Assembly: GCA_964619365.1 (NCBI GenBank)
Contig: CAZUDQ010000002.1
Span: forward strand, 132,815 to 191,538
Reading direction: 5' to 3'
Source of the DNA: an uncultured archaeon
GTDB lineage: Archaea > Altiarchaeota > Altiarchaeia > JAFGQM01
Length of the DNA: 58,724 nt
Position numbers and translations under genes: made by a program. Below are positions 10,705 through 57,700 of this stretch, piece by piece. The notes beneath the pieces were generated by a model. The model had not been told where the DNA came from. It did no database searches and saw only the letters and a program-made list of their open reading frames with translations. The stretch's first letter is position 1, and each line of letters opens with the position of its first letter.

Positions 10705-10726
10705 AACACTTGCATGTGCGAGTCTT
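10705..10726. repeat. 22-bp dispersed palindrome, copy 1 (AAcACTtGCA-TG-TGCGAGTCTT)
   Basis: Two mismatches to consensus. Lies between convergent genes. Confidence 0.8.
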
Positions 10727-10727
10727 G

Positions 10728-11081
10728 TCAACACACATAAGAAAAGACATCTTTTGCATCAATTTCGAGTCCACCCTTAACCGAAACGATTTCGCCAAGT
10801 ACCTGGGCGCACATGCCTTTTTTTGCTTTGAACGGAATTCTGTCAAAATAAATGACCTCAATATTCCTTTTGTTATCGCTAAGGAGAAGATAACAGCCGG
10901 CAGAAAAAACCCTTATTTCCGTTATTATCCCGCGTGTTAGTACAAGCTTCCCACGCATGTTTAAATCTATTTCTGAGATATCAATCATTTCCGGGACAAG
11001 GAGTCCTGATGCCTCATTCGTTAAAACAATCCCTCCGATTGCCACAATTACAAGTATTATAGGTAAAATCTCTTCTTTCAT
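10728..11081 (-). CDS. membrane-anchored OB-fold protein
   Basis: N-terminal TM, then G..V...G.I..I, L.D....I.V..F and V.G.....G.LEI.A. Confidence 0.7.
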   Translation of the reverse strand: MKEEILPIILVIVAIGGIVLTNEASGLLVPEMIDISEIDLNMRGKLVLTRGIITEIRVFSAGCYLLLSDNKRNIEVIYFDRIPFKAKKGMCAQVLGEIVSVKGGLEIDAKDVFSYVC

Positions 11082-11768
11082 CTAAGCTTTTTTCGCAGAG
11101 ATTATTAGGAAGCGGATGCCAAGAGCGCTCAGGAGACTGATTCTCTTGGAACAATACTTTTGAATATCAACGGATTTAAAGTCCTTTTGCATAATGGCGT
11201 TAAACTCTTTTTCAGAGTGCCTAAAAGTTTTAAACCCCCACGCACGGTCTGCCATAACATCACCGGCAAGGGCAAGCGGGTTTTTCGTAGAGTCAAAAGT
11301 CACAATTAGGCACATACCTTTAGGTTTAAGGACGCGCGATATTTCAGAAATCGCTTTTTTAGGGTTTGTAATGTGATGAAACGACCAGAAACACACAACA
11401 GCGTCAAATGAGGAGTCGGGATAATCCAGGTCTTCTGCGTCCTTAAGTTCAAATCGACCGTCTGGATATCGATTTTTACAGCAGGCAATCATACCTGGGG
11501 CAAAATCGGCTCCAGTGTATTCTCCCAGTTTAGAAAGCCAGGGATAAAGCTGACCCGTCCCGCAGCAAAGGTCAAGTATCTGCGCTTTTTTGTTTCCCAC
11601 GCGTGTCATGCTTAACTTAGAAGAAAGTTTTTGGACGGTAAGCTCACTTAAAGTTTCCCTTAATTCCTTTGAAGCCTTTGATATGTACCAAGAATCATAC
11701 TCGCCGCCTAACGCGTCATATGTGCAAAGCGTACTTGACTTTATCTTATTCTGCGTTAGTTTGTCCAC
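11082..11768 (-). CDS. class I SAM-dependent methyltransferase
   Basis: ILDLCCGTG, DAEDLDYPDSSFD, RVLKPKG. The GTG start is inferred. Confidence 0.85.
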   Translation of the reverse strand: MDKLTQNKIKSSTLCTYDALGGEYDSWYISKASKELRETLSELTVQKLSSKLSMTRVGNKKAQILDLCCGTGQLYPWLSKLGEYTGADFAPGMIACCKNRYPDGRFELKDAEDLDYPDSSFDAVVCFWSFHHITNPKKAISEISRVLKPKGMCLIVTFDSTKNPLALAGDVMADRAWGFKTFRHSEKEFNAIMQKDFKSVDIQKYCSKRISLLSALGIRFLIISAKKA

Positions 11769-11843
11769 AGTATGATTTTGATGTTTCTCCCTTAAATTTA
11801 TAAAGCCTCTTTTGTTAGTTTTATGCAAAAAATATAAATTAAA

Positions 11844-12491
11844 ATGGCAACACTCGTAGTATATTATTCAAAAACAGGGAACACAAAGAAGATTGCAGAA
11901 GAAATAGTCTCTTTAGAAGGCGGTGATTTGATGCAAATAGAAGAGAAAAACCCCAGTAAATCAGGAGGCATTAATATTATCGGTGCTGGCATTTCGGCGC
12001 TTCGAGGCAAAAAGACTGAAATCAAGCCATTATCTCACGTTCCTTCGGAGTATTCAAGAATTTATGTGGGGTCTCCTGTTTGGGCAGATAACATGCCTCC
12101 TGCAGTGCGTGGCTTTTTGGATTCAGGAGCACTTAACGGAAAAGAAGTCTTTCTTTTTTCAACACATGGTGGGGGTGGAGCAAAAAAGTTCTTTTGCAAG
12201 ATGGCAGAAGTTCTGCCAAAATCAAACATCTTAGGTTCATTTGCGATATGTGACAAGGAGATTAAAAAGGGTAATGAGAAAACGCATGTTAAAGATGCCC
12301 TCACTAAACTCGAGGTGCTTAACGGAAAAAAAGTCTCGGCAAAAAGTGCTGTTACTTCAGCGCTTAAAAAGCACAAAAAAGATTCAGAAAAAGTTAAAAA
12401 ACCCAAAAAGAAAAGCTCTGTATCTCTAACGAAAAAGACAGCAACTAAAAAGAAGAGTCCTGTAAAAAAGACAAATAAGGCCAAGAAATAA
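11844..12491 (+). CDS. flavodoxin with Lys-rich C-terminal tail
   Basis: YYSKTGNT, GSPVW, FSTHGG, then a ~55-aa K/S/T/A/P-rich tail. Confidence 0.85.
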   Translation: MATLVVYYSKTGNTKKIAEEIVSLEGGDLMQIEEKNPSKSGGINIIGAGISALRGKKTEIKPLSHVPSEYSRIYVGSPVWADNMPPAVRGFLDSGALNGKEVFLFSTHGGGGAKKFFCKMAEVLPKSNILGSFAICDKEIKKGNEKTHVKDALTKLEVLNGKKVSAKSAVTSALKKHKKDSEKVKKPKKKSSVSLTKKTATKKKSPVKKTNKAKK

Positions 12492-12512
12492 ATTCCCTTA
12501 TAACAGCAGGCT

Positions 12513-14822
12513 TTATTCTATCTCGCGTTTGTAGTGCCCCGCACTACGCTCATTGCCTCTTTCATCGGCTTTAAAATCAGAAAGCATTCTAGATATCCCG
12601 CTTTTTTCAGTGGAGACATCAGCGATTATTCCAAAACAGCCCTGAAGTTTAGAAAGTTCTCCACCCATATCAACCATCGTTGGGTTGTAAAGTCTAAAAA
12701 GGCCGTCTTTTACCTTAACTGGATAGTCAAATCCTTTCCTGCCTGAAAGGATATAGCTTCCATCGGCAAGAGACTTTCCATAAGCTGCAGAGACCATAAG
12801 CTGCGGGCGAAATACTCCAAGAGGGGCAAGTATTCCTTTAAATGATGAGTTTCTAATAGCATTTAAGTTTAATTCAACAGAAGGCACAACGACTTTTGCC
12901 CCAAGGTCGATAAGAGCCTTTATGCTAAGTGAATTCAGGCAGTTTAATTCCCGCCCTGCCCAAAACTCTCTTCCTTCCCTTTTAAGCGCCCAAAGAACGC
13001 CTAAGTTAGAGGCTACCACCGGAAGGTCCGAACTTGCCTTTATGAAGGCCCCAATGTCGCCTTTAGTTTCTATTTCAGGAGATTTTATGATGACTTTACA
13101 GTGCGCAAGCTCTTTTTTAAGGCGGTTTATCTCATTTTTGCCGCTTGCAGAACAGATTATTGTGCCTTTTAATTCTTTGGGGTCTATCTCCCCAGATTTT
13201 AATTGTTCTTCGCGAATTTCAAATATCCTTTCTGTTTGTTTGTTTGCTTTCCCACCTTTGGTATCATAATATTCCTTTACTCTGCTTCCAAAGTCTTCTG
13301 GGAGCTTCTTTTCACAGGATTCAAGAATCTTTTTCCTCATTGCAACAAGGCATTTTTCAGCGAGCACTCGGGCGACACTTGATGGTACAAAGGGAGAGCC
13401 TTCGATTTCACACCATGTTTTTGCCACAGGAAAGAAGAGATCGTCTTCTTTTGCAAATTTCTTTAGCCACTCGGGTTTTGTAGGAGCAGTCCTGGATTCT
13501 TCAAGGGCATCCCCTTCGGTTAGCTTAATACAATCTTCGCCCAGATACGCCTCAGCACACAAGGGTTCTCCCTTCTTTGCAATTATTCTTAATGAATAAG
13601 GCATTTTCTTTTCTTTGGGCGCACTTATTGGGTCTGGATGCGAGACAAAAAGGCTTTCACCAAGCTCAAGTTTTGCATTTCCGCTGAGAAGGAGGTGAAC
13701 AACCTGACCTTGGAATATATGCTTTACTTCTTTTTTACCCACGAATATTCGCTTTACTTCAAAATTTCTTATTTTTTCGCCCTTTATCATCGACAGCTTA
13801 TCGTGCTCCTTTATCTGAGCGCTTACCTTTACTTTGTAAAGCCCGCGTTCGATGCCAATGACTTCTGCCGCCTTTAAACCTTTATGGGATGGGGATTTTG
13901 CTATTCGCGAACTGCCTTCTTCACCTAAGAGATATCCCTTGTCATTTTCGCGAAGGAAGCTTGCCGCAAGATTGCGCAGTTCGGTTTCACTTGGACCCTC
14001 TCCCTTGCCAAGAAATTTTTTGATTGCCGCCCTGTATGCTACTGCCGCAGCCTTTACATAATCCTCGTTTTTGAGCCGTCCTTCGACTTTTAGGGCTGAT
14101 ACCCCCGCATTTATTATCTTTGGGATATTCTCTATTGTCATTTGGTCTTTTGGGCAGAGGAGATATCCTTGTTTAAGCACTTTTTCGTCTTCGTCCTTTA
14201 GGATATATCCCATCCTGCACGGCTGAAGACAACGCCCGCGGTTTCCGCTTTTGTTAAACGCAAAGCTCGAAAAAAGGCAAAGGCCCGAGTATGAGAAGCA
14301 AAGTGCCCCGTGGACAAATACCTCAGTTTCAACGCCACGGTCTTTCATTTCTGAGCTTATCTCTGAAACCTCCTTAACCGAAAGCTCGCGTGCAAGGACA
14401 ATTCGTTTAAAGCCAAGTTCTCCAAGAAGGCGTGCGCCTTCTATATTGTGGCAAGTCATTTGAGTTGAGGCGTGAATCCGTATTCCAGGGATAAGGTCAA
14501 TAAGAGCTTTACCCAGACCAATATCCTGAATTATTATGCCATCAACGCCAAGAGTCCATGCGCGCGCTGCAAGTCCCATAGCTTCACGTATTTCAGAATC
14601 TTTGATTAGCGTGTTTAATGCAAGATAACATTTTGCCTTTTTGATTTTACAAAAAGCGACAAGCTCAGACATTTCCTCTGAACTTAAGTTTTCCGCACTT
14701 GCTCTGGCAGAGAATTTGTCTGCTCCGAAATAGACTGCGTCTGCCCCATACAAAATGGCGGATTTTGCTTTCTTTAGGCTTCCTCCGGGGAGAATTAACT
14801 CCGGACTTAAATTTGAACTCAT
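12513..14822 (-). CDS. U32-family Fe-S protein, long RlhA-like form (putative rRNA hydroxylase)
   Basis: GADAVYFG, HASTQ, LAREL, EVFVHGALCFSYSGLC...NRGRCLQPCR, LKVEGR, long C-terminal extension. Confidence 0.85.
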   Translation of the reverse strand: MSSNLSPELILPGGSLKKAKSAILYGADAVYFGADKFSARASAENLSSEEMSELVAFCKIKKAKCYLALNTLIKDSEIREAMGLAARAWTLGVDGIIIQDIGLGKALIDLIPGIRIHASTQMTCHNIEGARLLGELGFKRIVLARELSVKEVSEISSEMKDRGVETEVFVHGALCFSYSGLCLFSSFAFNKSGNRGRCLQPCRMGYILKDEDEKVLKQGYLLCPKDQMTIENIPKIINAGVSALKVEGRLKNEDYVKAAAVAYRAAIKKFLGKGEGPSETELRNLAASFLRENDKGYLLGEEGSSRIAKSPSHKGLKAAEVIGIERGLYKVKVSAQIKEHDKLSMIKGEKIRNFEVKRIFVGKKEVKHIFQGQVVHLLLSGNAKLELGESLFVSHPDPISAPKEKKMPYSLRIIAKKGEPLCAEAYLGEDCIKLTEGDALEESRTAPTKPEWLKKFAKEDDLFFPVAKTWCEIEGSPFVPSSVARVLAEKCLVAMRKKILESCEKKLPEDFGSRVKEYYDTKGGKANKQTERIFEIREEQLKSGEIDPKELKGTIICSASGKNEINRLKKELAHCKVIIKSPEIETKGDIGAFIKASSDLPVVASNLGVLWALKREGREFWAGRELNCLNSLSIKALIDLGAKVVVPSVELNLNAIRNSSFKGILAPLGVFRPQLMVSAAYGKSLADGSYILSGRKGFDYPVKVKDGLFRLYNPTMVDMGGELSKLQGCFGIIADVSTEKSGISRMLSDFKADERGNERSAGHYKREIE

Positions 14823-14866
14823 ATTCGTTTGCCTTTTTTGGACTTGAAGCTTTAAAATAGCATAAA

Positions 14867-15604
14867 ATGACAAAACTCATCTTTCTTGGTTCTGGCGGCG
14901 GGCGTTTTGTGACCCAAACTCAAACGAGAAGAACTGGAGGGCTATGGCTTGAGGCAAACGGGAAAAATATTATGATAGACCCTGCACCAGGCACAATTGT
15001 GCGAAGTTTGGAATACAATACGCCTCTTTTAAAGCTTGATGCCATTCTAGTCTCTCATAAGCATCTTGACCATTATGGGGACACTGAGGTCTGTATCGAA
15101 GGCATGACTCATGGTATGGGTGAGGTGAGAGGTACGCTTTTTATCAACAAAAACACTTCAAGCTACGTTTCAGATTATCATAAAGATATGACTGAAGTCA
15201 TAGAGTTTTCAGATATTGGCAAATGGAAGCTTTGTGGGATTGATATTGAAACAATTCCAACATTTAATCATGACGGAGCATTCGGGTTTAAGTTTCATTT
15301 GGATGACTGCATAATCTCTGTTAGTTCAGATACGAATTATTCGCCTGAGCTTGCAAAATACTACTCAGGTTCAGACATATTGATACTAAATGTCCTTAGA
15401 CCAGACTCTTCAAAGATACAAAAGCACCTTTGCGTCTCTGAAGCCGCAAAGATAATCTCTGAAGCCAAACCCAAACTTGCAATAATCACCCATTTTGGCT
15501 ACGAACTGGCAAGTTCAGACACCGATGCCATCGCAGAAAAGATGACTAAGGAAACAGGTGTCGATGTTATCTCGGCACATGATGGACTGGGAATAGACGT
15601 ATAG
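14867..15604 (+). CDS. metallo-beta-lactamase-fold hydrolase
   Basis: FLGSGGGR, SHKHLDH, SDT, THFG. Confidence 0.88.
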   Translation: MTKLIFLGSGGGRFVTQTQTRRTGGLWLEANGKNIMIDPAPGTIVRSLEYNTPLLKLDAILVSHKHLDHYGDTEVCIEGMTHGMGEVRGTLFINKNTSSYVSDYHKDMTEVIEFSDIGKWKLCGIDIETIPTFNHDGAFGFKFHLDDCIISVSSDTNYSPELAKYYSGSDILILNVLRPDSSKIQKHLCVSEAAKIISEAKPKLAIITHFGYELASSDTDAIAEKMTKETGVDVISAHDGLGIDV

Positions 15605-15625
15605 TTTAAAGACTGCCCAAAAGGC

Positions 15626-15647
15626 AAGACTCGCATGTGCGAGTCTT
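15626..15647. repeat. 22-bp dispersed palindrome, copy 2 (perfect AAGACTCGCA-TG-TGCGAGTCTT)
   Basis: Perfect 10-bp arms. Lies between convergent genes and overlaps the dph6 stop codon. Confidence 0.9.
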
Positions 15648-16245
15648 AAAGGCGTAAGCTCTTTTTAAAGCCCGGACCATTAATGACAAATGTTTCATAT
15701 TCCCCACCTTCCCCACCTAAGTGGATTTGTGTTTTTCTAAACTTTTCAAGAAGTTCTGGAGTTATCTTAGCACCGATAAGTGAATCGTCAAGACCGTCTG
15801 CAAAAGTTCCGACAATCCGCACGTCAAAGCCTTCTTTGATTAGAAATTCCATATACATTTCAGGGTCAATGTGCCAAAGGGGATTGATTGTTGCAAGATT
15901 AAGTTCGTGGCAAATGCGCTCAATTCTTGTTCTTTGGTAGTCTGAAGCAAGGGCACCTGAAACAACGCCCACAATACCGAGTTCCTCCTTAAGCCCGGCA
16001 AGATACGTCTTTAAGTCATCAACTTCAGCCTCTTTTTCTCCTGCTGTTTCACAGACTCTTAACGGAATGTCCATGGCTTCAGCGAGTTCCGGGACGCGCT
16101 CTTCTTTTAGAGTATGGTACATGTAGGACTCCTTGTTTTTAGAGCGCATATTAAGGAGACATACAATATCATAACCCATCTGGCTTGCTATATGGCAGGC
16201 GTAAACTGAGTCTTTCCCGCCTGAGAAAAGTGCGACGACTTTCAT
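15646..16245 (-). CDS. dph6: diphthine--ammonia ligase
   Basis: PP-loop LFSGGKDS, SYMYH, GALASDYQRTR, PLW, GEGGEYETFV. Confidence 0.9.
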   Translation of the reverse strand: MKVVALFSGGKDSVYACHIASQMGYDIVCLLNMRSKNKESYMYHTLKEERVPELAEAMDIPLRVCETAGEKEAEVDDLKTYLAGLKEELGIVGVVSGALASDYQRTRIERICHELNLATINPLWHIDPEMYMEFLIKEGFDVRIVGTFADGLDDSLIGAKITPELLEKFRKTQIHLGGEGGEYETFVINGPGFKKSLRL

Positions 16246-16282
16246 AATAGCTTTTTTATCTTTTAGAAACATAAATGAACCA

Positions 16283-17407
16283 ATGCCAAAACCAAAAGCC
16301 AGAAAACCCGATTTCATACATTACAATCCCCCCAAATACCTAAGCTCGCCAAGGATAACTCCCAATAAACTCAAATCAATACATGAGAAAACAAAAAACC
16401 TTGATGTCCGTGAAGGTGAATTCTTGCCAATAAAATACTATGGTCACCTGCACCCGCTATTAAGAGAACGCTTGCCTGCACACATCGACATAAATGGGGT
16501 TAAGCGCGGGCCTTTTTTTGAGGAAATGGCAGAGGAAATGCGAATTTTAAAGGCATCACGACAGGCAAAACAAATTGGTATTCCCCACATGCAGCATATG
16601 CCCACACTTGTAGGTATGCACGAATTCAATGAAAATTTGAGGGAACCCGGAGATTTTATTCGTCTTAATATGGGCTTTAAGCACCCCGAAGCTGATATTG
16701 AGGGCGCTAGACTTCGTTCTGCCAGTTATATCACAAAGACCAGGAAAGGCAATTATTTGGTCCTAGGTTATGGCACGCAGGGGTCAACAAAATTGGCTCA
16801 GCTTGACAGAAAACTCAGGAAAGAATCTAAAGGCAATAGCGGTGGTAGTCAACTGCACAGGGTTTATGATTATGCAATTCCAGCTCAAACTCTTGCCATA
16901 CTATCAAGAGCTCTTCCGAGGGCGGGCAATCCTGAAGCTCGTGTATTTGTAACTGGTCAGGGCTTAGCAACACTCAGGCGAGGTACTGGGCGAGAATACT
17001 CTAGAGAAGCTTTAGAGGGATTCTTGCCGTTATTAAAAGATAATTATGGCATCACGGATACTGCCAAATATGAAAAGCTTCTAAAAAATTGGCAAAGTAC
17101 CGACCCATATGAACGCGACAGGGTACTAAGTACTCTACCCTTTAGAGGCCTTTTTGGAATACCTACCCACATACTTGACGATGTTTATCACAAGGTTCCA
17201 AGTACAATTGCTTCGAGAAAAAAGAGGCTTTTTGATGTTGCAACACCTGAGGTAGTCGAATCCATTTTTGCAAAAGATCCTCAAATCAAAGACCCAAAAG
17301 CTACTGCCAAAAAAGCTATGGATATGGACGTATTCGAGCTAGATGCGGAAAAAACAAAGGCTCTGGACCCCTTTATAAAAGTAGGGTACTCCAAAAAGAA
17401 AACTTAG
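16283..17407 (+). CDS. hypothetical protein, paralog of 18908-20143
   Basis: 374-aa ORF with a Pro/Lys-rich N-terminus. Shares collinear motifs with 18908-20143. Confidence 0.7.
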   Translation: MPKPKARKPDFIHYNPPKYLSSPRITPNKLKSIHEKTKNLDVREGEFLPIKYYGHLHPLLRERLPAHIDINGVKRGPFFEEMAEEMRILKASRQAKQIGIPHMQHMPTLVGMHEFNENLREPGDFIRLNMGFKHPEADIEGARLRSASYITKTRKGNYLVLGYGTQGSTKLAQLDRKLRKESKGNSGGSQLHRVYDYAIPAQTLAILSRALPRAGNPEARVFVTGQGLATLRRGTGREYSREALEGFLPLLKDNYGITDTAKYEKLLKNWQSTDPYERDRVLSTLPFRGLFGIPTHILDDVYHKVPSTIASRKKRLFDVATPEVVESIFAKDPQIKDPKATAKKAMDMDVFELDAEKTKALDPFIKVGYSKKKT

Positions 17408-18864
17408 TAGGCCTTGGCAATATACACAATAGTTGTTGCGTCCTTGCCACAAACCGGGCATTTGTCGCCATTATCTGGAATGCCTGCCGTTGGGTAAAGT
17501 GTTCCCCTGACTTCAGCTGAAATCGAGGCTTTTAGTTGTTCGTCGCAATCAACACCACTCATTTCACAACTGCACCACGGAGATTTTGCGATCCCGCCTT
17601 CTGCTATAACATTCTCAATCACATCAAGGGTTTTTGCCTCCCTTATGTTTTCGATAAGATGTTTTGTCGAATGCATTAAAAGGACATTATCAAGCTCGAT
17701 TGCTTCCTTTTCAACCTCATTTAGCAGCTCTTTTTCATCAATAGGTTTTTTGTTGCCAAGACGTGATGCGATAACTACTTTGTTCTCTTCAATATCGCGT
17801 GGTCCGATTTCAATCCGGATTGGGGTGCCCATAAGTTCCCAATGATAGTGCTTTTCACCAGGGCGTTTATCTGAAGCATCTATTTCTACAATGAAACCTG
17901 CATTTTCAAGTAAAAGGCGCATCTCCTCGCATTTCTTAAAGATTGCATCCTCTTTTTTACCCTTAAAGATTATTGGGAGTATTACAATTTGGACGGGAGC
18001 CAGTTCCATTGGGAGAACAAGACCCTTATCGTCCCCGTGAGTCATCACTGTTGCGCCAATAAGCCTGGTTGAAACGCCCCATGTTGTCTGGTGGACAAAA
18101 GTCTTGTTATTGTTCTCATCAAGGAATGAGATTTCCATGGGTCTTGAGAAATGAGTTCCCATGTTATGGACAGTTCCCGCCTGAAGGACCTTTCCATCCG
18201 GCATGAGCGTTTCTAAAGAAACTGTATCCTCTGCCCCCGCAAATTTATCCCATTCTGGGCGCTTAACAAAAAAGCATGCAATCTTTAGTCGCTCTTCAAG
18301 AAGCTTTTTGTAAACATCAAGGACTTGTGCTTGGTTCTCCTTAGCCTCTTTTGCGCTTGCAAAACAGCTGTGCCCCTCTTGCCACAAGAACTCGCGCCCA
18401 CGGATAAAGGGCTTAGTCATTTTTGTCTCCCAACGCACGATATTGCACCACTGATTTGTCTGAAGTGGTAAATCCTGATAACTTCTTATCCAAAGCTTAT
18501 ACATATTATTTATGATTGTTTCACTAGTCGGGCGAATCGCAAGGCGATTATCAAGCTTTTCTTCGCCCCCATGAGTTACCCAGGCGACTTCTGGCATAAA
18601 GCCTTCAAAGTGCTCTGCTTCTTCCTTTAGAAGCGATTCGGGGATGACCAGGGGGAAATAAGCGTTTCTTGCTCCAAGTGCCTTGAATTCCGGATTTGAG
18701 AACTCTTGAATCTTCTCCCATATATGATACGCATTTGGCATGACTACATCAAAGCCTTTTGTGGGTGAGCGCTGATCCATAAGCTTTGCGCGGCGCACAA
18801 GCTCTATATACCACTCTGAAAAATCCTCGTCCTTTTTGATATTAAAAAAATCTTTATCAGCCAT
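17404..18864 (-). CDS. proS: proline--tRNA ligase (archaeal/eukaryotic type)
   Basis: RPTSET, RWE..PFIRGREFLWQEGH, FAGA, WGVSTR, C-terminal Zn knuckle ending AKAY. Confidence 0.97.
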   Translation of the reverse strand: MADKDFFNIKKDEDFSEWYIELVRRAKLMDQRSPTKGFDVVMPNAYHIWEKIQEFSNPEFKALGARNAYFPLVIPESLLKEEAEHFEGFMPEVAWVTHGGEEKLDNRLAIRPTSETIINNMYKLWIRSYQDLPLQTNQWCNIVRWETKMTKPFIRGREFLWQEGHSCFASAKEAKENQAQVLDVYKKLLEERLKIACFFVKRPEWDKFAGAEDTVSLETLMPDGKVLQAGTVHNMGTHFSRPMEISFLDENNNKTFVHQTTWGVSTRLIGATVMTHGDDKGLVLPMELAPVQIVILPIIFKGKKEDAIFKKCEEMRLLLENAGFIVEIDASDKRPGEKHYHWELMGTPIRIEIGPRDIEENKVVIASRLGNKKPIDEKELLNEVEKEAIELDNVLLMHSTKHLIENIREAKTLDVIENVIAEGGIAKSPWCSCEMSGVDCDEQLKASISAEVRGTLYPTAGIPDNGDKCPVCGKDATTIVYIAKAY

Positions 18865-18907
18865 TTCTTTTTGCTATTTTTGAGTCTTTGGAATTAAAAG
18901 CTACCAA

Positions 18908-20143
18908 TCAATTCCCATCAGAACTGCTTGCACGCTCGATATTTTCTACGTCATGCCCACGTTTTTTCAGGTCGTTTTGCCAAATCTCAATCTCCTTTTC
19001 ACTCATAGGTTTTATGAATTTACTTAATTCTTTAAACGCAGGAACTCGCATATCATAAGCCTTAAGCCCTGTAAGGTTTTTTGCGTCTTCTGGAGTCACG
19101 CCCCACTGGAAATGCATATGCCAATCAGATAAAGGTCCTAAGGCATCTTCTGCAGTTGTTTTTCTTGCACCTAATTTTTTTGGTATAGTACTGTAATTCC
19201 GTTCAAGAACAACCTTAGGAACTCCATGCGCCCGGTCAAAAAAGGTACCTCCATCCTCATAGATATCCTTTAGGATCTTTCTTACTTTGATTCCACCCAT
19301 ATCAGGACTATCCCAATTATCCAAAATTTGTTTTATTCGCTTTTGATTCTGTTTTGATAGCGGGTAATATTGAGCTTCCTTTAGTATTTCTTTTGATTGA
19401 GGTCTTTTAGTTCCCTTTCGCCACCATCCAAGGTCTTTTCCAGGCATCCCAATAGGATATTTATCGCCTTCGCGCATAAGGAGCGCTGAAGTTAAAGCAA
19501 GACCCAAGCTTGGGGCACCTTCATCAAAAGTCTTGTGCATCCCAGGACTTATTCCAGCTCTGATATCGTGCCAGTTATGCTCTGTTGTATCTCGCTCGCG
19601 ATCCTCTTTAGATCTAAGGTCTGTAAACTGCATGCCATGGGCCTCAATAGAATACCGGTCCCCAGGATTCTTTCTTATTACGTGCGTTGTTGGAACAAGA
19701 GGATGTTTATCGTATCCTGGAACTTCCATAAACGCCCTGATTGGATATATCCTGTCTATTTCACCTTCTGTTGCAAGCTCTCCAAGATCAAGAACCGTGG
19801 GATAAAAATGCCCCCCACGAAGATTTGAATCATAGATGTGTTTAGCTTCCTTTAGGGAGGTTATCTCTTTTGCAAAGTCATCCCGTGAAGAACCTTTTGG
19901 GAGCCTTTCACGAATGAGTGGATGTAATTTTTGCCTTCCTTCTTTGTCAAGAACTGCCCCTTTTGTTGGAGTGTTTTTAGAGACATTTTTTATAAGCTGG
20001 TTTATCTTGTTTGAACTATGATGCTTATGTCCCCCCAATATTGGATGTGGGTCAAATTTCCAGAACCTTTGGCCACCAAGTGGCTTTGAAGTCTGGATGG
20101 GAGGTAATTTAGGTAATTTAAAAACAGGTCGTTTTGGGGGCAT
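18908..20143 (-). CDS. hypothetical protein, paralog of 16283-17407
   Basis: 411-aa ORF beginning MPPKRP. Shared motifs such as LHPLIRERLP. Confidence 0.7.
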   Translation of the reverse strand: MPPKRPVFKLPKLPPIQTSKPLGGQRFWKFDPHPILGGHKHHSSNKINQLIKNVSKNTPTKGAVLDKEGRQKLHPLIRERLPKGSSRDDFAKEITSLKEAKHIYDSNLRGGHFYPTVLDLGELATEGEIDRIYPIRAFMEVPGYDKHPLVPTTHVIRKNPGDRYSIEAHGMQFTDLRSKEDRERDTTEHNWHDIRAGISPGMHKTFDEGAPSLGLALTSALLMREGDKYPIGMPGKDLGWWRKGTKRPQSKEILKEAQYYPLSKQNQKRIKQILDNWDSPDMGGIKVRKILKDIYEDGGTFFDRAHGVPKVVLERNYSTIPKKLGARKTTAEDALGPLSDWHMHFQWGVTPEDAKNLTGLKAYDMRVPAFKELSKFIKPMSEKEIEIWQNDLKKRGHDVENIERASSSDGN

Positions 20144-20246
20144 AGTATTGTTTTTTTAACATTAACAACTTATTATTAAACTCTAAAAGAAGATAAACAT
20201 AGCTTTTCTAACTCTTTGTTCAAAACTAACACGCGAAGGAAATAAA

Positions 20247-21155
20247 ATGTTTGATTTGGTGATTATCGGAGCAGGACCTGCGGGGCTTTCAGCTGCAAAT
20301 GAAGCAAAAAAGCTAGGACTTGATTATATCTGCTTAGAAAAAGGCGTTGTTGCAAACACAATTGTTGATTATCCTCCAAATAAGGACATTCTTTACACGC
20401 CCCTAGACTTAAAATGTGAAGGTGACCTTCCACTTCCTGAAGGGAAAGTAGAAGGCTTAATCAAAGCCTGGCAGGACTTTGCAAAGAAGTTTAATATCAA
20501 AGAGCACGCGGAAGTCACGGAAATAACTAAAAAAGACGGATATTTCATCATAAGTACAAAATGTGAGGACTTTGAAGCAAAATTTGTTCTTGTTTCAGCA
20601 GGCGTTCAGGGCAGCCCGCGCACCTTAGACCTTCCATGCTGCGAAAAAGCACAGTTGATTTATAAAATTTCAGATCCAGCTAAGTTCTCAGGTAAAAAAG
20701 TCATTGTAGTTGGTGGCGGCGATACTGCAATTGAACATGCGATGCTCCTCAAAGATGCTGGAGCTAATGTTACATTATCATACCGAAAGCCAGAATTCTT
20801 TAGGATTAAGGAAGCCAATTCTGTGGCTATTACTGAGAGCAAAATACCAATCATATTCGAGTCAAATGTCATCTCAGTCAAAGACGGCATTGCAACTCTT
20901 GACATAAATGGCAAGCAAAAAGAGATTCCTGCCGACTTTATCGCTGTTTTTGCAGGAACTGTGCCCGCAACTGCCTTTTTAGAAAAAATTGGACTCATCC
21001 TTGAAAACAATAAGCCAAACTATGATTTGGAGACTTTAGAATCAACTGACATCCCAGGAATATTCATTGCAGGAGACTTAACAAAACAGCCACTTATAAA
21101 ACCCGCAATAAATCAGGGCGTAAAAGTGGTATCTGAAATAAAAAAGCGAATTTAA
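20247..21155 (+). CDS. NAD(P)/FAD-dependent oxidoreductase (TrxB/YpdA-like, no CxxC)
   Basis: IIGAGPAG, VVGGGDTA, YR, GIFIAGD. Confidence 0.85.
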   Translation: MFDLVIIGAGPAGLSAANEAKKLGLDYICLEKGVVANTIVDYPPNKDILYTPLDLKCEGDLPLPEGKVEGLIKAWQDFAKKFNIKEHAEVTEITKKDGYFIISTKCEDFEAKFVLVSAGVQGSPRTLDLPCCEKAQLIYKISDPAKFSGKKVIVVGGGDTAIEHAMLLKDAGANVTLSYRKPEFFRIKEANSVAITESKIPIIFESNVISVKDGIATLDINGKQKEIPADFIAVFAGTVPATAFLEKIGLILENNKPNYDLETLESTDIPGIFIAGDLTKQPLIKPAINQGVKVVSEIKKRI

Positions 21156-21156
21156 T

Positions 21157-22443
21157 ATGGATTTAAGAGAATTTTTAGATAAGCTTGACTCGGAAGGAAA
21201 GCTTCTTAAAAAAGAGGGTGGGAATCCTGATGTAGAGATAGCAGACCTGATATTTTCAGAGAAATCCCCAATACTTTTTAGCGGTCTTGGCAAATATCGC
21301 CTTGTTTCAGGTGTTTGCATGAGTAGAGACTTAATCGCAGATTATCTGGGTTGCGATAAAAACGAGCTTATATTTAAAATCGCAGATGCTCTTGACACCC
21401 CGATTGACCCGGTTATAACTGATACGCCAGCACCATGCCAGGAAGTCGAAGAGGAAAAAGTCGACCTTGAAGAAATTCCAATACTTAAGCATTATTCAAA
21501 AGACGACGGCAATTACATCACAGCAGGTCTTGTATTCATAAAAAATCCAGACGGAAGCCAGAATGTGGCCTACCACCGGATGAAGCGCATTGGAAAAGAC
21601 AAGCTTGTCGGGCGAATCTGTGAGCGCGATACCTTTAAGTGCATAAAGGAGAAGGGTGGCACCAGCGAAATCGCAATCTCCCTTGGAAACGTACCTTCAA
21701 TGCTAATTGCGGCCTCAACCAGCTTAAAAGGTGTTGATGAGACTAAGATTGCGGGCGCCCTTGAGAACAAACCAGTAACTCTCATCAAATGTAAAACCGT
21801 TGATATAAACGTCCCCTCAAATTGCGAGATTGTCCTTGAAGGAACAATATCTTTTGACGAGCGCGCGCAGGAAGGAAAGTTTGTGGATATGACAGGCACT
21901 TATGATTCATTTCGCGAGCAGCCGGTAATCACGATAAAGAAGATAACGCATAGAAAAAATCCGATTTATCAGGCAATTGTTCCAGGGAAAACCGAGCACC
22001 GGCTTCTTATGGGCATGCCAAAGGAGCCAACAATCCTAAAAGCAGTATCTCAGGTATGCGACTGCAAAAACGTCAATCTGACACCCGGTGGCTGCTCATG
22101 GCTCCATTCTGTAATCCAGATAAAGAAGAACTCTGAAAACGACCCAAAAAATGCGATAAAAGCGGCATTTAACGGTCACAAATCAATGAAACGAGTGATT
22201 GTCGTTGATGAGGATATAGACCTATTTGACCCTGAAGATGTTGAGTGGGCGATTGCAACACGTGTACAGGCGCACAGGGATGTCATGCTTTTCCCGGGCG
22301 AGCCTGGCTCATCCCTTGATCCTTCAGCCGAAGACGACCCGAATTCTGACAGACGCCTGACAACAAAATGGGGGATTGATGCGACAATACCTGCCGGTGG
22401 CAAAAAAGAGCATTTCCTGCGCGCAAGTGAATTGCAGGAATAA
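21157..22443 (+). CDS. ubiD: UbiD-family prFMN-dependent decarboxylase (probable anhydromevalonate-phosphate decarboxylase)
   Basis: EIVLEG, EGKFVDMTGTYD, GGCSWLH, VVDEDID, EWAIATR, SSLDPS, GIDAT. Confidence 0.88.
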   Translation: MDLREFLDKLDSEGKLLKKEGGNPDVEIADLIFSEKSPILFSGLGKYRLVSGVCMSRDLIADYLGCDKNELIFKIADALDTPIDPVITDTPAPCQEVEEEKVDLEEIPILKHYSKDDGNYITAGLVFIKNPDGSQNVAYHRMKRIGKDKLVGRICERDTFKCIKEKGGTSEIAISLGNVPSMLIAASTSLKGVDETKIAGALENKPVTLIKCKTVDINVPSNCEIVLEGTISFDERAQEGKFVDMTGTYDSFREQPVITIKKITHRKNPIYQAIVPGKTEHRLLMGMPKEPTILKAVSQVCDCKNVNLTPGGCSWLHSVIQIKKNSENDPKNAIKAAFNGHKSMKRVIVVDEDIDLFDPEDVEWAIATRVQAHRDVMLFPGEPGSSLDPSAEDDPNSDRRLTTKWGIDATIPAGGKKEHFLRASELQE

Positions 22444-22444
22444 A

Positions 22445-22756
22445 ATGAGCATAAAGCGATTCAGCAAACAGTCGGGAGACGAACTGGTATCGCATCTTAA
22501 GAATTTTCTTCTTATGGGAGACGCCGATTCCTTTGACATTAAGATTGATACCTTTGCAAAAGTCGCAGAAGTAAAAAAAGCGCGCCCAGGGGGTAAAGGC
22601 AGTTCAAAAAAGAAAGAACACATACGTTCTTTGATGCCTAATATGCAGCCCAAAAAAAGAAAGCAGGTCCTCTCAAAAAAACGTCAGGAAAAGCCAAAAT
22701 TAAAAACTGTCAGAAACGGCCGGATGATAAACTTAAAAGGATATGAAGGTTATTGA
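22445..22756 (+). CDS. small basic hypothetical protein
   Basis: ATG immediately after the ubiD stop. Lys/Arg-rich. Confidence 0.55.
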   Translation: MSIKRFSKQSGDELVSHLKNFLLMGDADSFDIKIDTFAKVAEVKKARPGGKGSSKKKEHIRSLMPNMQPKKRKQVLSKKRQEKPKLKTVRNGRMINLKGYEGY

Positions 22757-23217
22757 AGCGCCCTGACCAGATTCACATCAAGTGTTATTTCATTTGTAAA
22801 ACCCTTTGGGTTTTTTGTAACAACTCCCCTTGCTTCAAGACCGGATATAGTCCTTGATATCTTTACTTTCCCAATTCCGGTTTCAGAGACTATTTTGGAT
22901 TGGGTCATAGTCCCGCCTTCTTTTGCAAGAATCTCGATTACCTTTCTTTCTGAAGAGTCAAGAAGCCTTAGAATAGGGCTTAAATCTTTTTTTTCCTGTT
23001 CCCTGAATTGCGCGCTGAGAAAATAGTATACAAGGCAGCCTACAAGGAGGCCTGCTGAGGATAAAATAGGAATCAAAAGTTCAACTGGAAACTCGCAACC
23101 GCAAACTGTACCTGAGAGGATGAGTGATTGTGCGTACATGGAAGCCAGTGAAACTGCCAAGATAAATCCAGTGAGAAGGATTATTCCCATTACAAGTTTT
23201 TGAGCATTTGATTCCAT
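22750..23217 (-). CDS. membrane-bound winged-helix transcriptional regulator (2 TM + wHTH)
   Basis: Two TM helices with a CGC loop, then L...ER..I..L...GG..TQS.I...TG..K.KISR....LE.RG. Confidence 0.8.
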   Translation of the reverse strand: MESNAQKLVMGIILLTGFILAVSLASMYAQSLILSGTVCGCEFPVELLIPILSSAGLLVGCLVYYFLSAQFREQEKKDLSPILRLLDSSERKVIEILAKEGGTMTQSKIVSETGIGKVKISRTISGLEARGVVTKNPKGFTNEITLDVNLVRALQ

Positions 23218-23239
23218 TTTGTCCGCACGCTTAAGGTAG

Positions 23240-23260
23240 TCGTTTCATAAATCGAAACGA
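23240..23260. promoter_or_regulatory. inverted repeat TCGTTTC-N7-GAAACGA, putative operator in a divergent promoter
   Basis: Perfect 7-bp arms between the regulator gene and the thioredoxin-like operon, next to TATATATA. Confidence 0.5.
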
Positions 23261-23308
23261 GACTATATATACTGTTTCATTATAATATACTCCAATAAAA
23301 GGAAAACA

Positions 23309-24370: not shown

Positions 24371-24371
24371 A

Positions 24372-28682: not shown

Positions 28683-29393
28683 ATGGAACTACGGTTAATC
28701 GAATCTGGTGAGTGCGACCCTGCGCTCAATATGGCAATTGATGAAGCGATAACAAATTCGGGCATACCCACACTACGCTTGTTTTCATGGGATGCCCCTG
28801 CAGTGACTATGGGATATTTCCAAAAGGCAAATGAGGTGGCAAAACTTGATTTGTGTAAGAATGACGGCGTTTCTGTAATAAGAAGAATAAGTGCCGGGGG
28901 GACTGTCTTTCACGGAAAAGGAAGCTTTACTTATTCCCTTTGTGTTCCGCAAGGCGAACTTGGCATGGAAAATGATGTCGTATGCAAATGGCTTTGCGAT
29001 GCGATAATAACAACACTTGCTAAAATCGGTGTCAAAGGGGAATTTAAGCCGCCAAACGACGTTTTAATTGATGGCAAGAAGGTATCGGGCAACGCCCAGG
29101 CGACAAAAAATGGCAGTTTCTTGCAGCACGGGACAATAATTGTAAGTGATTGCATAACTGACGCTGTTAAATACTTAAACATACCAAAGGGCAAAAAGCC
29201 GATAACATCAGTCTGTAGCGAGCTTGGACGGAAAGTGGAAACAGAAGAGCTCAATCGCTTTATGATTGAGGCATTTAAGGAAGACTCGCATGTACGAGTC
29301 TTGAAGCCTGCAAAGCTATCTGAAGAGGAACTTGCTTACGCAAAAGAGCTTTGTGAGAAATATTCTTCAGACGAATGGAACCTTTCAAAATAG
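28683..29393 (+). CDS. lplA: lipoate--protein ligase/octanoyltransferase catalytic domain (LplA/LipM family)
   Basis: NMAIDEA, RRISAGGTVFH, ND, KKVSGNAQ, QHGT. Confidence 0.88.
   Translation: MELRLIESGECDPALNMAIDEAITNSGIPTLRLFSWDAPAVTMGYFQKANEVAKLDLCKNDGVSVIRRISAGGTVFHGKGSFTYSLCVPQGELGMENDVVCKWLCDAIITTLAKIGVKGEFKPPNDVLIDGKKVSGNAQATKNGSFLQHGTIIVSDCITDAVKYLNIPKGKKPITSVCSELGRKVETEELNRFMIEAFKEDSHVRVLKPAKLSEEELAYAKELCEKYSSDEWNLSK
29281..29302. repeat. 22-bp dispersed palindrome, copy 3 (AAGACTCGCA-TG-TaCGAGTCTT), inside lplA
   Basis: One mismatch. Encodes part of EDSHVRVL. Confidence 0.85.
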
Positions 29394-38438: not shown

Positions 38439-38460
38439 AAGACTCGCACATCCGATTCTT
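38439..38460. repeat. 22-bp dispersed palindrome, copy 4 (AAGACTCGCA-CA-TcCGAtTCTT)
   Basis: Two mismatches, reverse orientation of the central dinucleotide. Lies just downstream of the DRG GTPase gene. Confidence 0.8.
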
Positions 38461-41314: not shown

Positions 41315-41315
41315 C

Positions 41316-43211: not shown

Positions 43212-43344
43212 AAGCTATTTTCCATCTGCATTAAAAAATGGTTATTTGCTAACTTAATGTTGAGTAAGTGTTAGATTAGTGTTTTTTAAGATAAAACTTG
43301 AAGATAACTATGTGAATAGATAAAATAGTTTAAATTATCGTAAA

Positions 43345-43578: not shown

Positions 43579-43690
43579 TATAGGACTTCGGGGTAGGGGA
43601 TACAAAAATAAAACCCTTTGAAATTTTGTAGAGCCTAATGAAAGTAAGTTTTTATTCTCGCCCCAATAACAATTAGGCAAACTATTTAAA

Positions 43691-44092
43691 ATGGCCGCAA
43701 AGAAAAAAACTGCTAAAATCCCGAAGAAAACCGGTAGCATTGAAGACGAACTTCGAAGGATTGAGGCCGAAGAAAAAGCGATTTTTGTTGAGGAAAAACG
43801 CATTGAAGAAAAAGAAGATCTCTTACGCTCGTTTGAAGAACTTGGACTTATGCGTTGGAAGAGCTACTATATCCTTACAGCAGGGGCAATACTCCTTCTT
43901 GCATTAACATTTGTTACAAGCCTTTGGGTCATGAACGACCAGCTTTCAAACATGCAGACAAGCATGGATACAATCGAGGCTAAGATTGATGCTCTTGACG
44001 TAGGTGGAGTTATTGGTAATGTTCCAGCAGAATACTTTATGATTGCAGAGACTGAAGGACCAACTGAGGTTCTAACGCCTCCGGGTTCTTAA
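43691..44092 (+). CDS. hypothetical single-TM coiled-coil protein
   Basis: E/K-rich coil, one TM, short coil. Confidence 0.6.
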   Translation: MAAKKKTAKIPKKTGSIEDELRRIEAEEKAIFVEEKRIEEKEDLLRSFEELGLMRWKSYYILTAGAILLLALTFVTSLWVMNDQLSNMQTSMDTIEAKIDALDVGGVIGNVPAEYFMIAETEGPTEVLTPPGS

Positions 44093-44095
44093 ATT

Positions 44096-53798: not shown

Positions 53799-53910
53799 TT
53801 GCGAACTGAAAAGAAAAAGTACGGGATAAAGTTCAGTTTATAGTAATAAAAATCAAGAGACTTTTAGCTCGTTGTAACTTGCATATAGACTCTTAAATCT
53901 CGTGATCCAG

Positions 53911-54708
53911 TTATTTAAGGAATTTTAGAGCTTCTGCTACGCCCTTCTTCCCGTGAACAATAGCGTTTACTGCGCCGACCATCTTTGCAGGGTCTTTTGC
54001 CTGGAAGAAATTCCTACCCATAGCAACTCCTGCGCCGCCAGCCTCTAGTGAATCTGCAACCATTTGTAGTACATCTTCAATCTTTTTTGCCTTGGCACCG
54101 CCGGCAATGACAACAGGAACTCCGCAGCAGCCTTCAACTACTTCCTTAAACGAGTCAATGTCTCCTGTGTAGTTAGTCTTTATAATGTCTGCTCCAAGTT
54201 CAACCCCGATTCTTGCCGCGATTTTTACGACTTCAGCGTCATACGGGTCTTTTACGTCATGACCTCTTGGGTACATCATTGCAAGAAGGGGCATTCCCCA
54301 TTCATCTGCAGATTCGGCGACCATGCCAAGATCCTGCATCATATCAGTTTCGGTTTCAGCACCTATATTAACATGCACTGAAACAGCATCAGCTCCCATG
54401 CGCACTGTCTCTTCAACTGTTGTTACAAGGCGCTTTGCGTTAGGGTCTGGAGCTAGATTAGAAGAACCTGATAAATGAATAATGAGACCTGTATCCTTGC
54501 CGTATCCTCTGTGAGCAGTTCTTACCATGCCTTTATGCAAAAGGATTGCATTTGCTCCGCCATTTACTACAGAGTCGACTGCAGCTGCCATGTCACTAAG
54601 TCCGGGAATCGGGCCTACTGTTATGCCGTGATCCATTGGGGCAATTATGCTTCTGCCATCTTTACGGTCAATTATCCGCTCCATGCGAATTTGTTTGCCT
54701 GAAATCAT
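53911..54708 (-). CDS. aroA': 2-amino-3,7-dideoxy-D-threo-hept-6-ulosonate synthase (DhnA-type aldolase)
   Basis: [36 protein letters not shown]. Adjacent to aroB'. Confidence 0.9.
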
Positions 54709-54747
54709 TTTATTTAGATATTTTTGCAGCAGGGTTAAAAAATATGC

Positions 54748-57700
54748 CTATATCTTCTCAATAATGCCTGAACTGCGTTTCTTCGCGGCAAAAGTGACAA
54801 TAAGGAATGCTGCGATTATGACTGCGACAAGTAAGAGAACTGAGCGCGCGGCTGAGTCGGCAATCCAGTTTACAAAGTCGCCTACTGCGTCTGCAACAGA
54901 GCCAAGGACGCCTGCTATTCCTGAGTCTCCCGTCCCGCCTTTAGTCTCAACGTCAAGAAGGACGTAGTTTCCGGCGTATCCACTCTTATCGGCCATAACA
55001 GCCCATTTGCCTTTCTCATAAAGCTTAAAGCCGTCTTCATAGGAGAGTATGCGCCCATCAGGCGTGATAAACTGTATTGTCACCCCGTCAATCAGGTTGC
55101 CAAACTCGTCATAAATTGTGACATTAACACCGTCTCCGACAAATTCCCCGCCGATAATAATGATTTCAAGAGCGCCTTCAGTTGCGTTGACTTCGCAGGT
55201 ATCAACCATTGTGCCGTCACCCCCGCAGTTTCCGCTTTCACATGAACACTCGCACATGCGAGTCTTGAGGCCCCCAACGCATTCACTCCACTCTTCACAT
55301 ATCCAGTCAGCGTCGCATTCTTCTTCCTTCCCACAAGTCTCATCGTAGGTAAACTCACATGTTCCTGCAACACAGCTTGGGATAAAACATTCCTGGACGG
55401 GGCAATCAGAATCGGTCTTGCAATCACATACGTAGGCTCCTGGGACACACTCCCCTCCAGAGCAAAGGTCTCCTTGCGTACAGAAGTCACCGTCATCACA
55501 CGCACTTGTTGTTGGAATCTCTGCACACATACCAAGCTCGCAGACAAGGTCGATACATGGGTCGCTTGAGTCTCCGCAAGTGTTTCCTGATAATAGCTCG
55601 ATTATGCACTCCCCATTAACGCACTCAACTGTCGTGCAGGGGTTGCCGTCATCCGGGCAAGTTACACCCTCACAGGCATTACAGTCCTGTTCTGTTTCAT
55701 GGTTCCCTGAACACTGAGAGTCTTTCGGGCATCCGCATGAACAAGAGCGCGTCTGGGTTCCATCCTCGCATTCGCTCCATTCACCACACGACCAAGATTT
55801 TGAGCAACTTGGCGCGGGACAATGAACTGAGACTGTTGCTGAGTCCGTTATTGTCACGGGTTCTGAAGTGTCTGAAGTGACGCTAACACTTCTTGAGATT
55901 GAAGTTGTCGGGCAAGAAACGCCTTGAGTCCAAGCGTGATTATATGAGTCTCCAGAGTCAATATTTCTGTTATACATTGCCCCCCATGAGGTTGTTATTG
56001 TAACAGTTAACTCTGTTTCTCCTAAATTTGTTATTGTAAGATTCCAAGCAACGGTTCCAGTTTCGTCAATACTGCTTGGAACTGCCCTGAAGTCTACTGT
56101 GAAATTTGCATCGCCCGGAAAGACTTCAAGAAGGCCAAGATCACTTGATGAGTTGTAGTTGCTGGTGTTCTCAATCGTGCAGTTAAGCGTGTGAGTCATA
56201 TCCGGCGAAAGGGTCTTTACTCCTTGGCTTGTTATCTCCTCATCAATCGAAAGGACTGTTGAGAGCGAATCTGGGGTTCCGTTGCATGTGATATTAACTG
56301 GCAGCGTGTATGCCACAGGAGAGGTCTCATTAACGTTAAGTGTGACACTTGTTGCGGCTTTGTCTACGTGCAGGTACTTTGTGTCAATTGAGTCTCCAAA
56401 TGAACCTGTGCCTGACATTATACAAGTCAGGTTGTAGCGGTCTGTGTCAAGGACCCCAAGACTTCCTTCTGATATCGGTGTCCCATTGCGGTAAAGCTGG
56501 GTTGTTCCTTCTCCTTCTACAATTGTGCAGCTCGCGCTTACAAGAGTGCCGTAGGTTACAGGACTTGAATCGTTAAGAGTTACCGCGACTTCAGTTGTGT
56601 ATCCTGTGACTGTGACTGTCAAATCAGCTGTTGCAGACTGGGTTAGAGCGTCAGTTGCAGTTAGCCTTAGGGCGTGTTCGGTAAATATTGGAAGCTCTGT
56701 TGCGTTCCTTAGGGACTCTGATACTATTGTGAAATCTGTATTGTTAACCGTTAAGGAATCAATTCCCTCGCAGGCAAAGACTTCAATTGGGTAGTTTAGG
56801 TCCGTTCTGAAGAATACTGTTTGGTTAGTGACTCCTACAAACTGTGGCCCGCATCCTTGCGCGTCATAACTCGGGCACCCCTGGCATGTCGCGTCTTCGC
56901 GTGTTAATGCGGGGGTTCCAACGCACTGGCAGTCAGAACTCCATTTTGCGCTGTCCCAAAAGGTGAAGGGCTCATTATCCATCGTCTTAAAGTAGGAGAT
57001 GTCTGAAATTTCTGTGCAGCCTGAGTCACCTGTCGGGTAGCAATATTCCGCGTCGCCTCCCGCAAGCCAGTAGACATTATTAAGGCTTGTGAAGTTGTCA
57101 TCGCCTGCGATTCCTCCGGCGTCTCTTGTCGAGTAGACAAGATTTGAGGCAAAAGAATCATATATCCTTGTTCGGTATGAGAATCCTGAGAGACCGCCAA
57201 CGCTTTCAGTTCCGGCCACAGTTCCTGAGGCATAAGAGTCTGTTATTATTGCAGACTGCGCGTGGCCAAATATTCCTCCAACTATGCGCCCTCCTGCAAG
57301 ATTGCCGTCAAAGTATGAGTCATATATCCGTGCACTTGGAGCATATCCTGAAATCCCGCCTGTAGCGTATATACTTGAAACATTACCTCTTGCATATGAA
57401 TCCCTTATTGTCGATGATGAGGAATGACCAAATAACCCTCCAGCATAGTAGTTGCCCTTTATGTTTCCAACTGAGCTGCAATTTGTGATTGTCGCGCCGT
57501 AAAAGACTCCTCCAAGACCCCCTGTGTGGTGGTTTCTTCCCGTGATATTTCCCCGGAAGTTACAACGCAACATACTAGAACTGGCTCCATAACCAACGAT
57601 TCCACCCACATAATGGCTTGTTGAGTCCATGCGCCCACTTGCGTTAATATCGCTAAATGTCGCGTATGCTGCGCGCGTGGCAATGGCGCCTGCCATATAG

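Follow-up and report, generated by a model that had tools for sequence, protein, structure and literature searches.

A dispersed 24-bp palindrome in an archaeal family, a candidate recognition site for a symmetric DNA-binding protein

The DNA considered here is a stretch of 58,724 nucleotides (hereafter the window) from contig CAZUDQ010000002.1 of assembly GCA_964619365.1, an uncultured archaeon of the Altiarchaeota, and our subject is a short palindrome that recurs along it. In our genome set the window is G000:C2:132815-191538, G000 being the genome under study, a 1.21-Mb metagenome-assembled genome (MAG) in 17 contigs that is 85% complete and encodes diphthamide synthase, an archaeal-type ProRS and orc1/cdc6. 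Five copies had been predicted as 22-mers, three between convergent genes and two within open reading frames (ORFs); positions and contexts were both correct, and the copies differ from the 22-mer at 2, 0, 1, 2 and 1 positions (better strand), in order along the window. The first, AACACTTGCATGTGCGAGTCTT, occupies 10705..10726, in a 40-nt spacer with a SpoU methylase ORF on its left (9992-10687, plus strand) and an OB-fold ORF converging from its right (10728-11081, minus strand). The perfect copy, AAGACTCGCATGTGCGAGTCTT (15626..15647), lies between an ORF with a metallo-beta-lactamase fold (14867-15604, plus) and a convergent diphthamide synthase ORF (15646-16317, minus), whose stop codon it overlaps by 2 nt. 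The third copy, AAGACTCGCATGTACGAGTCTT (29281..29302), is within a lipoate-ligase-family (LplA) ORF (28578-29393, plus), 90 nt before the stop. The fourth (38439..38460), which reads AAGAATCGGATGTGCGAGTCTT on the minus strand, is in the spacer between a weak ParB_N-like ORF (37823-38227, plus) and a convergent GTPase ORF (38470-39615, minus), 9 nt past the GTPase stop. The last (55245..55266; AAGACTCGCATGTGCGAGTGTT on the minus strand) is inside a GLUG-motif ORF of 1304 aa (54748-58662, minus), where it encodes K-T-R-M-C-E-C; a Cys-rich repeat, paralogous among giant GLUG proteins and located towards the C-terminus, carries six copies of the motif, this one included, and five of the six agree at all 22 nt while their flanks differ. 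No match to the 22-mer was present in 100 dinucleotide shuffles of the window. DNA of the window is present in four salt-lake metagenome runs, no RNA run being among the listed carriers, and the contigs of these runs over window positions 9500-29400 cover three of the sites, at which they show neither differences nor indels nor joints (a comparison of contigs only). A tRNA search of the window found none.

The flanks of the copies had been described as unrelated. This is right in that they do not align with one another (pairwise identity is barely above random, at best 16 of 22 positions against 13) but wrong for the base adjoining the 22-mer, which is conserved. Of 48 half-site flanks examined genome-wide, 40 have a G at +1 (a C on the other strand), and we therefore take the unit to be a 24-bp palindrome, C-AA-NN-CTCG-SRYRYS-CGAG-NN-TT-G. 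No extended element was found beyond it, the flanks past this G holding at most 0.3 bit per position. Within it the consensus is looser than first read: AA, CTCG, CGAG and TT are fixed across the G000 copies in genome-wide scans, and positions 3-4 and 19-20 of the 22-mer and its central six bases vary. When the 12 fixed positions are allowed no more than one mismatch and the centre must read S-R-Y-R-Y-S, G000 has 33 sites; counting seven or eight weaker ones as well makes about 38-41. In the reversed genome there were 0 sites at 0 mismatches and 3, with poorer centres, at one. A pattern search likewise returned 32-33 matches in G000 against 0 for the reversed pattern. The motif is thus a real, dispersed and enriched palindrome and not a chance one, with dozens of copies beyond the window, as anticipated. 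Half-sites do not disperse alone: of 64 half-site matches in G000, 18 fall outside the listed sites and 7 of these belong to weaker full sites, leaving 11 solo half-sites against 14 matches in the reversed genome, so that the lone half-site is not above chance. On this ground, and because the flanks show no consistent target-site duplication, we rejected a terminal inverted repeat of an insertion sequence (IS) or miniature inverted-repeat transposable element (MITE); the original prediction had likewise noted the absence of target-site duplications. One of its claims did not survive, namely a switch in the polarity of the central TG/CA, since along the whole of contig C2 the order is + - + + - - + + + - -, without a single or replichore-like switch. 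Synteny between G000 and its relative G004 is fragmented into 5-40-kb blocks, and scaffolding of contigs by G004 synteny failed. A full-text literature search for the core 12- and 14-mers did not find the motif, nor did titles and the openings of abstracts retrieved with 'Nanohaloarchaeota' and 'palindromic' mention one like it.

We compared the eight genomes of the family (G000-G007, all of them incomplete MAGs, 63-87%) and the 61 genomes of the class. G000 and G001 are placed in genus g1, G003 belongs to g3, and G004, G006 and G007 belong to g4. The expectation that sister genomes would carry the motif was borne out by G007 (24 sites) and G006 (16 sites), beside the 33 of G000; G004 has 2 sites and G003 has 1, and G001, though of the same genus as G000, has none in the pattern scan. 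Among the class genomes the motif is abundant only in G000, G007 and G006, all in one family; three single GC-rich, dissimilar matches occur in other class genomes, 53 of the 61 have no match at all, and the reversed pattern gives 0 in every one. When 185,579 species, each represented by one genome, were scanned for the exact pattern, at least 111 loci were returned; among the matches listed, 19 come from the two relatives and 92 from outside the family, single per genome apart from the relatives. Viral contigs gave eight single matches, which is chance level.

How are the sites placed with respect to genes? Of the 41 listed G000 sites, 18 are outside our crude ORFs, one of which (window 29281) is truly in the LplA ORF; given that about 7% of G000 is non-coding, sites outside ORFs are strongly over-represented. 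By these crude calls, 7 of the 18 spacers are convergent, 8 tandem and 3 divergent, and removal of the LplA case (C2 162095, the same as window 29281) leaves 7 true tandem ones, in 6 of which the site is closer to the upstream stop than to the downstream start. Most spacer copies lie 1-34 nt past stop codons, and two copies of the motif are directly followed by GTTTTTT. Genes hold about half of the G000 copies. These are found in either strand orientation and use each of the three frames, which read KTRMCE, xSHMRx and TLAYAxV, and their relative position along genes looks unbiased. The genes adjoining sites share no common pathway. Three sites lie within 40 kb of the single orc1/cdc6 gene (G000 C1, 191 kb), and one conserved copy, in the divergent spacer between a PRC-barrel gene and TraB, is 2.7 kb from it. 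The surrounding region, G000:C1:191245-195560, has this only orc1/cdc6 gene beside SepF-like, TraB-family and PRC-barrel genes, and the spacer upstream of orc1 has G-string boxes.

Sites shared between genomes were found by tblastn of G000 ORFs onto the site loci of G006 and G007, and position proved to be held between genera at about 65-70% nucleotide identity. In mevalonate kinase the motif is at the same codon in G000 (QESDTRVL), G006 (QPSHMREL) and G007 (QPSHVREL) and has decayed in G004 (QDLNIQRL). The 29281 copy of the lipoate-ligase-family gene is likewise at the same codon in G000, G006 and G007, with a one-mismatch relic in G004. A Trm14-like methyltransferase gene has the motif in G000, G006 and G007, one half only in G001 and a degenerate version in G004; in G002 and G003 an unrelated segment of nearly equal length stands at the motif position. 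The PRC-barrel/TraB spacer has the motif in G000, G006 and G007. The encoded amino acids differ between genomes at shared motif positions. A copy in HemK is present only in G000, with a length change of +6 nt. Given the near-equal lengths in Trm14 and the mere 6 nt in HemK, these two copies are not insertions. (In-frame insertions do occur just downstream of the motif position in Trm14, of 23 codons in G006 [L056] and 18 codons in G004 [L057], the G006 one being built of short GC-rich inverted repeats.) In orthologous alignments of G007 with G006, the 12 fixed positions are intact in 5 of 8 cases at an overall identity of 72-85%; by our own arithmetic, the neutral expectation at about 75% identity is some 3% per site. 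In alignments to G004 they are intact in 0 of 15, with counts of mismatches or gaps of 1, 1, 1, 1, 4, 5, 6, 6 and 6. G004 has no replacement palindrome and no other abundant palindrome family, so the constraint was lost there rather than the motif changed. These comparisons demonstrably indicate selection at the DNA level that keeps the sites, even within coding sequence.

If a hairpin were what is selected, the two halves of one site should be alike more often than halves paired at random. They are not: the halves vary independently, with no excess of identical halves at positions 3, 4, 9, 10 and 11 (25 sites in G000, 16 in G006 and 20 in G007). The covariation score over 41 aligned sites is 0.078 against a shuffled mean of 0.074, 194 of 500 shuffles scoring as high, and pairing is lacking at the three variable pairs in 18, 23 and 21 of the 41 sites. 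The claim that substitutions are not compensated therefore stands, covariation being at the level of shuffles and matching halves showing no excess. The matches outside the family behave differently. Among those listed, both NN pairs are complementary in 79 of 92 and A/T runs are present in 70 of 92, whereas among the listed matches from the two relatives complementary NN pairs number 2 of 19 and A/T runs 1 of 19. Because of their complementary NN pairs and A/T runs, most of the listed outside matches are rho-independent terminators, which share the pattern with the archaeal motif and differ from it in exactly these features. An intrinsic terminator was rejected for the archaeal motif itself, with variable stem positions unpaired in 18-23 of 41 sites and an A/T run in only 1 of the 19 family matches listed. 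The original preference for a dimer site over a hairpin is in line with the independent variation of the halves, the lack of covariation and the unlikeness to the bacterial terminators. This pattern of variation indirectly supports recognition of the duplex by a symmetric dimer, which it would fit better than a hairpin, and the generic features of a dimer site are present: two-fold symmetry, independent half-sites and no excess of lone half-sites.

We accordingly propose, with a probability of about 0.5, that a symmetric, sequence-specific and probably homodimeric protein recognises the motif in double-stranded form and is a candidate for a role at the level of the chromosome; the binding, the dimeric state and the effect of binding are what we infer from sequence. 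Each half-site would be read as C-AA-(S)N-CTCG-(C/G)(A/G)-Y. With CTCG and CGAG 10 bp apart, AA/TT 5 bp further out and a flexible pyrimidine-purine (YR) step at the centre, two reading heads on the same face of the helix could each enter one of two successive major grooves, and the protein could also touch the minor grooves to either side, a geometry that follows from the motif and the textbook B-DNA helix. Purifying selection would keep the sites at fixed chromosomal places, in genes and spacers alike, and sites would decay in genomes that lost the system. We favor a chromosome-level job over that of a promoter operator because most spacer copies are between convergent genes or shortly past a stop and the neighboring genes share no function. 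That role is a guess; candidate jobs would be to mark the chromosome for its organisation or segregation, or to stand at gene ends as an insulator or as a roadblock in both directions.

Several points weigh against this proposal. The cognate protein was not found. The original prediction had envisaged a co-distributed DNA-binding protein, which would be expected in G000, G006 and G007 and be missing from G001 and G004. Crude G000 ORFs were profiled by tblastn (sampling 98% of the assembly for G004, 79% for G006 and about 22% for G001), and those with a match in G006 and none, or a much weaker one, in G004 were retained. This filter yielded 39 + 28 + 11 ORFs plus a few short ones, and by profiling against G004, G006, G001 and G007 none of them combined a recognisable DNA-binding fold with the right distribution; Pfam gave no DNA-binding domain in the 12 candidates scanned. 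There is also a mobile-element side to the motif. In G007 a composite of about 100 nt is present in 8 places, in which a first site is followed by CCG, GTCTCGCACAGTCT, a GC-rich hairpin and then another site that is partly degenerate; the stem of the GC-rich hairpin shows compensatory changes, and Rfam gave only sub-threshold chance matches to these composites. A diverged composite is found in G006 at one orthologous place, and at another G007 differs from G006 by a clean insertion of 43 nt that includes a site. Composite and insertion together are the behavior of a mobile element and imply that the motif can be copied with neighboring DNA, at least in G007. Further, the invariant positions would pair in a hairpin and, being invariant, are neutral on pairing, and an RNA or DNA hairpin with its variable positions unpaired keeps some small probability. 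Lastly, the gene calls are crude (longest ORFs, covering 93% of G000) and the MAGs incomplete (63-87%).

Could the motif be a REP-like selfish palindrome, a 24-mer copied by a trans-acting nuclease or transposase and decaying after loss of the enzyme? In the REPIN/RAYT proposal old copies last as long as the genome retains the enzyme and decay once it is gone, and the site decay in G004 and G001 would agree with this, as would the eightfold G007 composite, the site-bearing 43-nt insertion, identical 27-mers in two unrelated genes of G000 (C5 13783 and C5 44076) and the spacer copies at gene 3' ends, where insertions are tolerated. The enzyme, however, does not track the motif. The Y1 transposase (PF01797) has 0 matches in G000 (85% complete) and G007 (63%) and has matches in G001, G005 and G006, with a fragment in G004, a distribution close to the opposite of the motif's; the Y1-bearing G001 and G006 share a different, compensating family, AGGTTCACC-N3-GGTGAACCT. 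Nor does the 24-bp motif show compensatory changes or target-site duplications, and about half of its copies are genic, without an insertion-sized length change and with same-codon copies across genera. A REP/REPIN-RAYT system was rejected for G000 on the lack of a Y1 gene and of compensation and on the genic half of the copies; the REP-like alternative raised originally thus fails its defining tests in G000 and keeps its footing in the G007 composite, a copied unit built around the motif. Overall we regard it as doubtful. An ordinary regulon operator, bound by a transcription factor that controls the adjoining genes, would suit the three G000 copies in divergent spacers, the PRC-barrel/TraB one being conserved in G006 and G007, and a two-fold architecture of 22-24 bp is typical of operators. 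It is unlikely, in view of the 7 of 18 spacer copies between convergent genes, the 6 of 7 true tandem-spacer copies nearer the upstream stop, the copies (about half) inside genes and the lack of a common pathway among adjoining genes.

A role in RNA seems to us quite unlikely, whether in termination, in stabilising the 3' end or in processing, perhaps by the beta-CASP ribonuclease described below. The hairpin would have a 3-bp C-A-A stem, a 2x2 internal loop, a 4-bp CUCG/CGAG stem and a hexaloop, and the self-complementary conserved positions, the spacer copies mostly 1-34 nt past stops and the two with GTTTTTT would be accounted for, as would the presence of the beta-CASP gene in G000, G006 and G007 and its reduction to a fragment in G001 and absence from G004. 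Yet the conserved letters are then the stems and the variable ones the loops, the reverse of usual RNA-protein recognition; covariation is lacking, a U-run is missing from most copies, in contrast to the bacterial terminators with this pattern, many copies are mid-gene, G002 has the beta-CASP gene and no motif, and an Rfam scan of the window found no family at gathering score. The core of a site-specific recombinase (dif/pdif-like), with two inverted arms around a variable centre, is a very improbable explanation. The arms and the variable, often asymmetric centre recall such a core, and one G007 segment is bounded by two sites, but tyrosine recombinases were rejected when the Phage_integrase family (PF00589) gave 0 matches in G000 (85% complete) with a control that matched 14 of 14 genomes, and the four metagenome contig sets show no rearrangement joints over 20 kb (contigs only).

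A more specific form of the dimer-site proposal, which we put forward tentatively and think rather less probable than its negation, is a private archaeal system for marking the chromosome, in which a candidate dimer would read some 35-40 fixed sites as a counterpart of MatP, Noc or SlmA or as a two-way transcription roadblock. Its sites would have been held since before the genera split, overriding amino-acid sequence, and the system would have been lost at least twice (G001 and G004). The bacterial matS, SlmA and Noc sites are palindromes of 13-20 bp, tens per chromosome, that occur in genes and spacers and are not tied to promoters; their readers MatP, TetR-type SlmA and ParB-type Noc are dimeric, and the sites are confined to or excluded from one region of the chromosome. 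The archaeal motif shares with them dispersed palindromes in both genes and spacers, and differs in its host and in having a reader that is a candidate only. parS sites, too, are palindromic, often genic and conserved in position between species, but a chromosome has few of them, grouped close to the origin, whereas the sites here are dispersed by the dozen. With REP/REPIN-RAYT elements the motif has in common a short dispersed palindrome at gene 3' ends, restriction to a lineage, the G007 composites and decay where lost, as against the missing Y1 in G000 and G007, the lack of compensation, the genic half of the copies and their placement at the same codon across genera. The 22-bp helix-turn-helix operators of CRP type likewise have two blocks of 4-5 bp spaced 10 bp apart, outer A/T and a central YR; the likeness is one of architecture alone, with no likeness of sequence, and the archaeal sites are mostly off promoters. 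To our knowledge, sequence-specific chromosome landmarks have been described thoroughly in bacteria and barely in archaea. The long palindrome studied here is demonstrably under DNA-level selection in an archaeal lineage of small genomes, with G001 and G004 as natural loss-of-system controls within the family. A marking system, if real, would give archaea an equivalent of the MatP, Noc or SlmA landmarks of bacteria; a REP-like replicator without a Y1 transposase, if that were the case, would be new for archaea as well.

Among candidate readers, a 375-aa orphan and a 293-aa membrane protein were rejected because both are also in G001, which is without the motif. The closest fit in distribution is a beta-CASP (RMMBL) nuclease of 513 aa without KH domains (G000:C4:15049-16590), found in G000, G006 and G007, absent from G004 and represented by a 34-residue fragment in G001; it was rejected on its presence in G002, which has no motif. 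Tandem basic Cys proteins on C13 were set aside for their weak match in G004 and lack of one in G007. At locus L320 (G000:C13:15851-17662) four paralogues follow one another in tandem; these are basic proteins of 137-155 aa that belong to no Pfam family, begin with a Lys/Pro-rich segment and share four conserved cysteines. G006 has a single homologue, and G004 a weak one. The TrpR family (PF01371) has 0 matches in all 8 family genomes. The ParB_N-like ORF at 37823-38227 falls short of the Pfam cut-off (25.4 against 26.3 bits) and occurs in all eight genomes of the family, including motif-free ones, a distribution that led us to reject it as reader; it was the only ParB candidate examined, no other search for ParB having been made.

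Other repeats were seen in these genomes. A hairpin family GTGCAC-AGGTTCACC-N3-GGTGAACCT-CGTG with compensatory stem changes is found in G001 and G006 (in G001 at L184:5872, L187:15994 and L193:13502 and 13529), both of which carry intact Y1 transposase genes; hairpin and transposase are likely a true REP/RAYT-type pair in this archaeal family. A second repeat family of G000 has 38 copies of AAAGTAAGAWWWTCTTACTTT, 13 of which alternate with GGGTTACNNNGTAACCC in a unit of about 82 nt; these form tandem arrays of 2-3 units, mostly intergenic, at G000:C6:50101-50285, C10:44792-44976, C13:6304-6522 and other places. In the window itself, an AT-rich island at about 39600-44100 (GC 0.36) has at least 6-8 copies of the palindrome GCCTCAGAAAnCTGAGGC (GCATCAG..CTGATGC), within a 680-bp non-coding stretch at 40214-40893. 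Beside the array are small winged-helix ORFs (39896-40213 and 42939-43211) and ORFs without a Pfam match, and it looks like an iteron or operator region of an integrated element or a replication origin. The array at 40.2-40.9 kb was rejected as kin of the 24-bp motif, being a different and unrelated palindrome. At 35198-37183, an 83-aa ORF, whose match to the 302-position diphthamide-synthesis (Dph2) profile is confined to the first 55 positions, is followed by ORFs of 563 and 213 aa with no Pfam match; this may be a split or interrupted gene.

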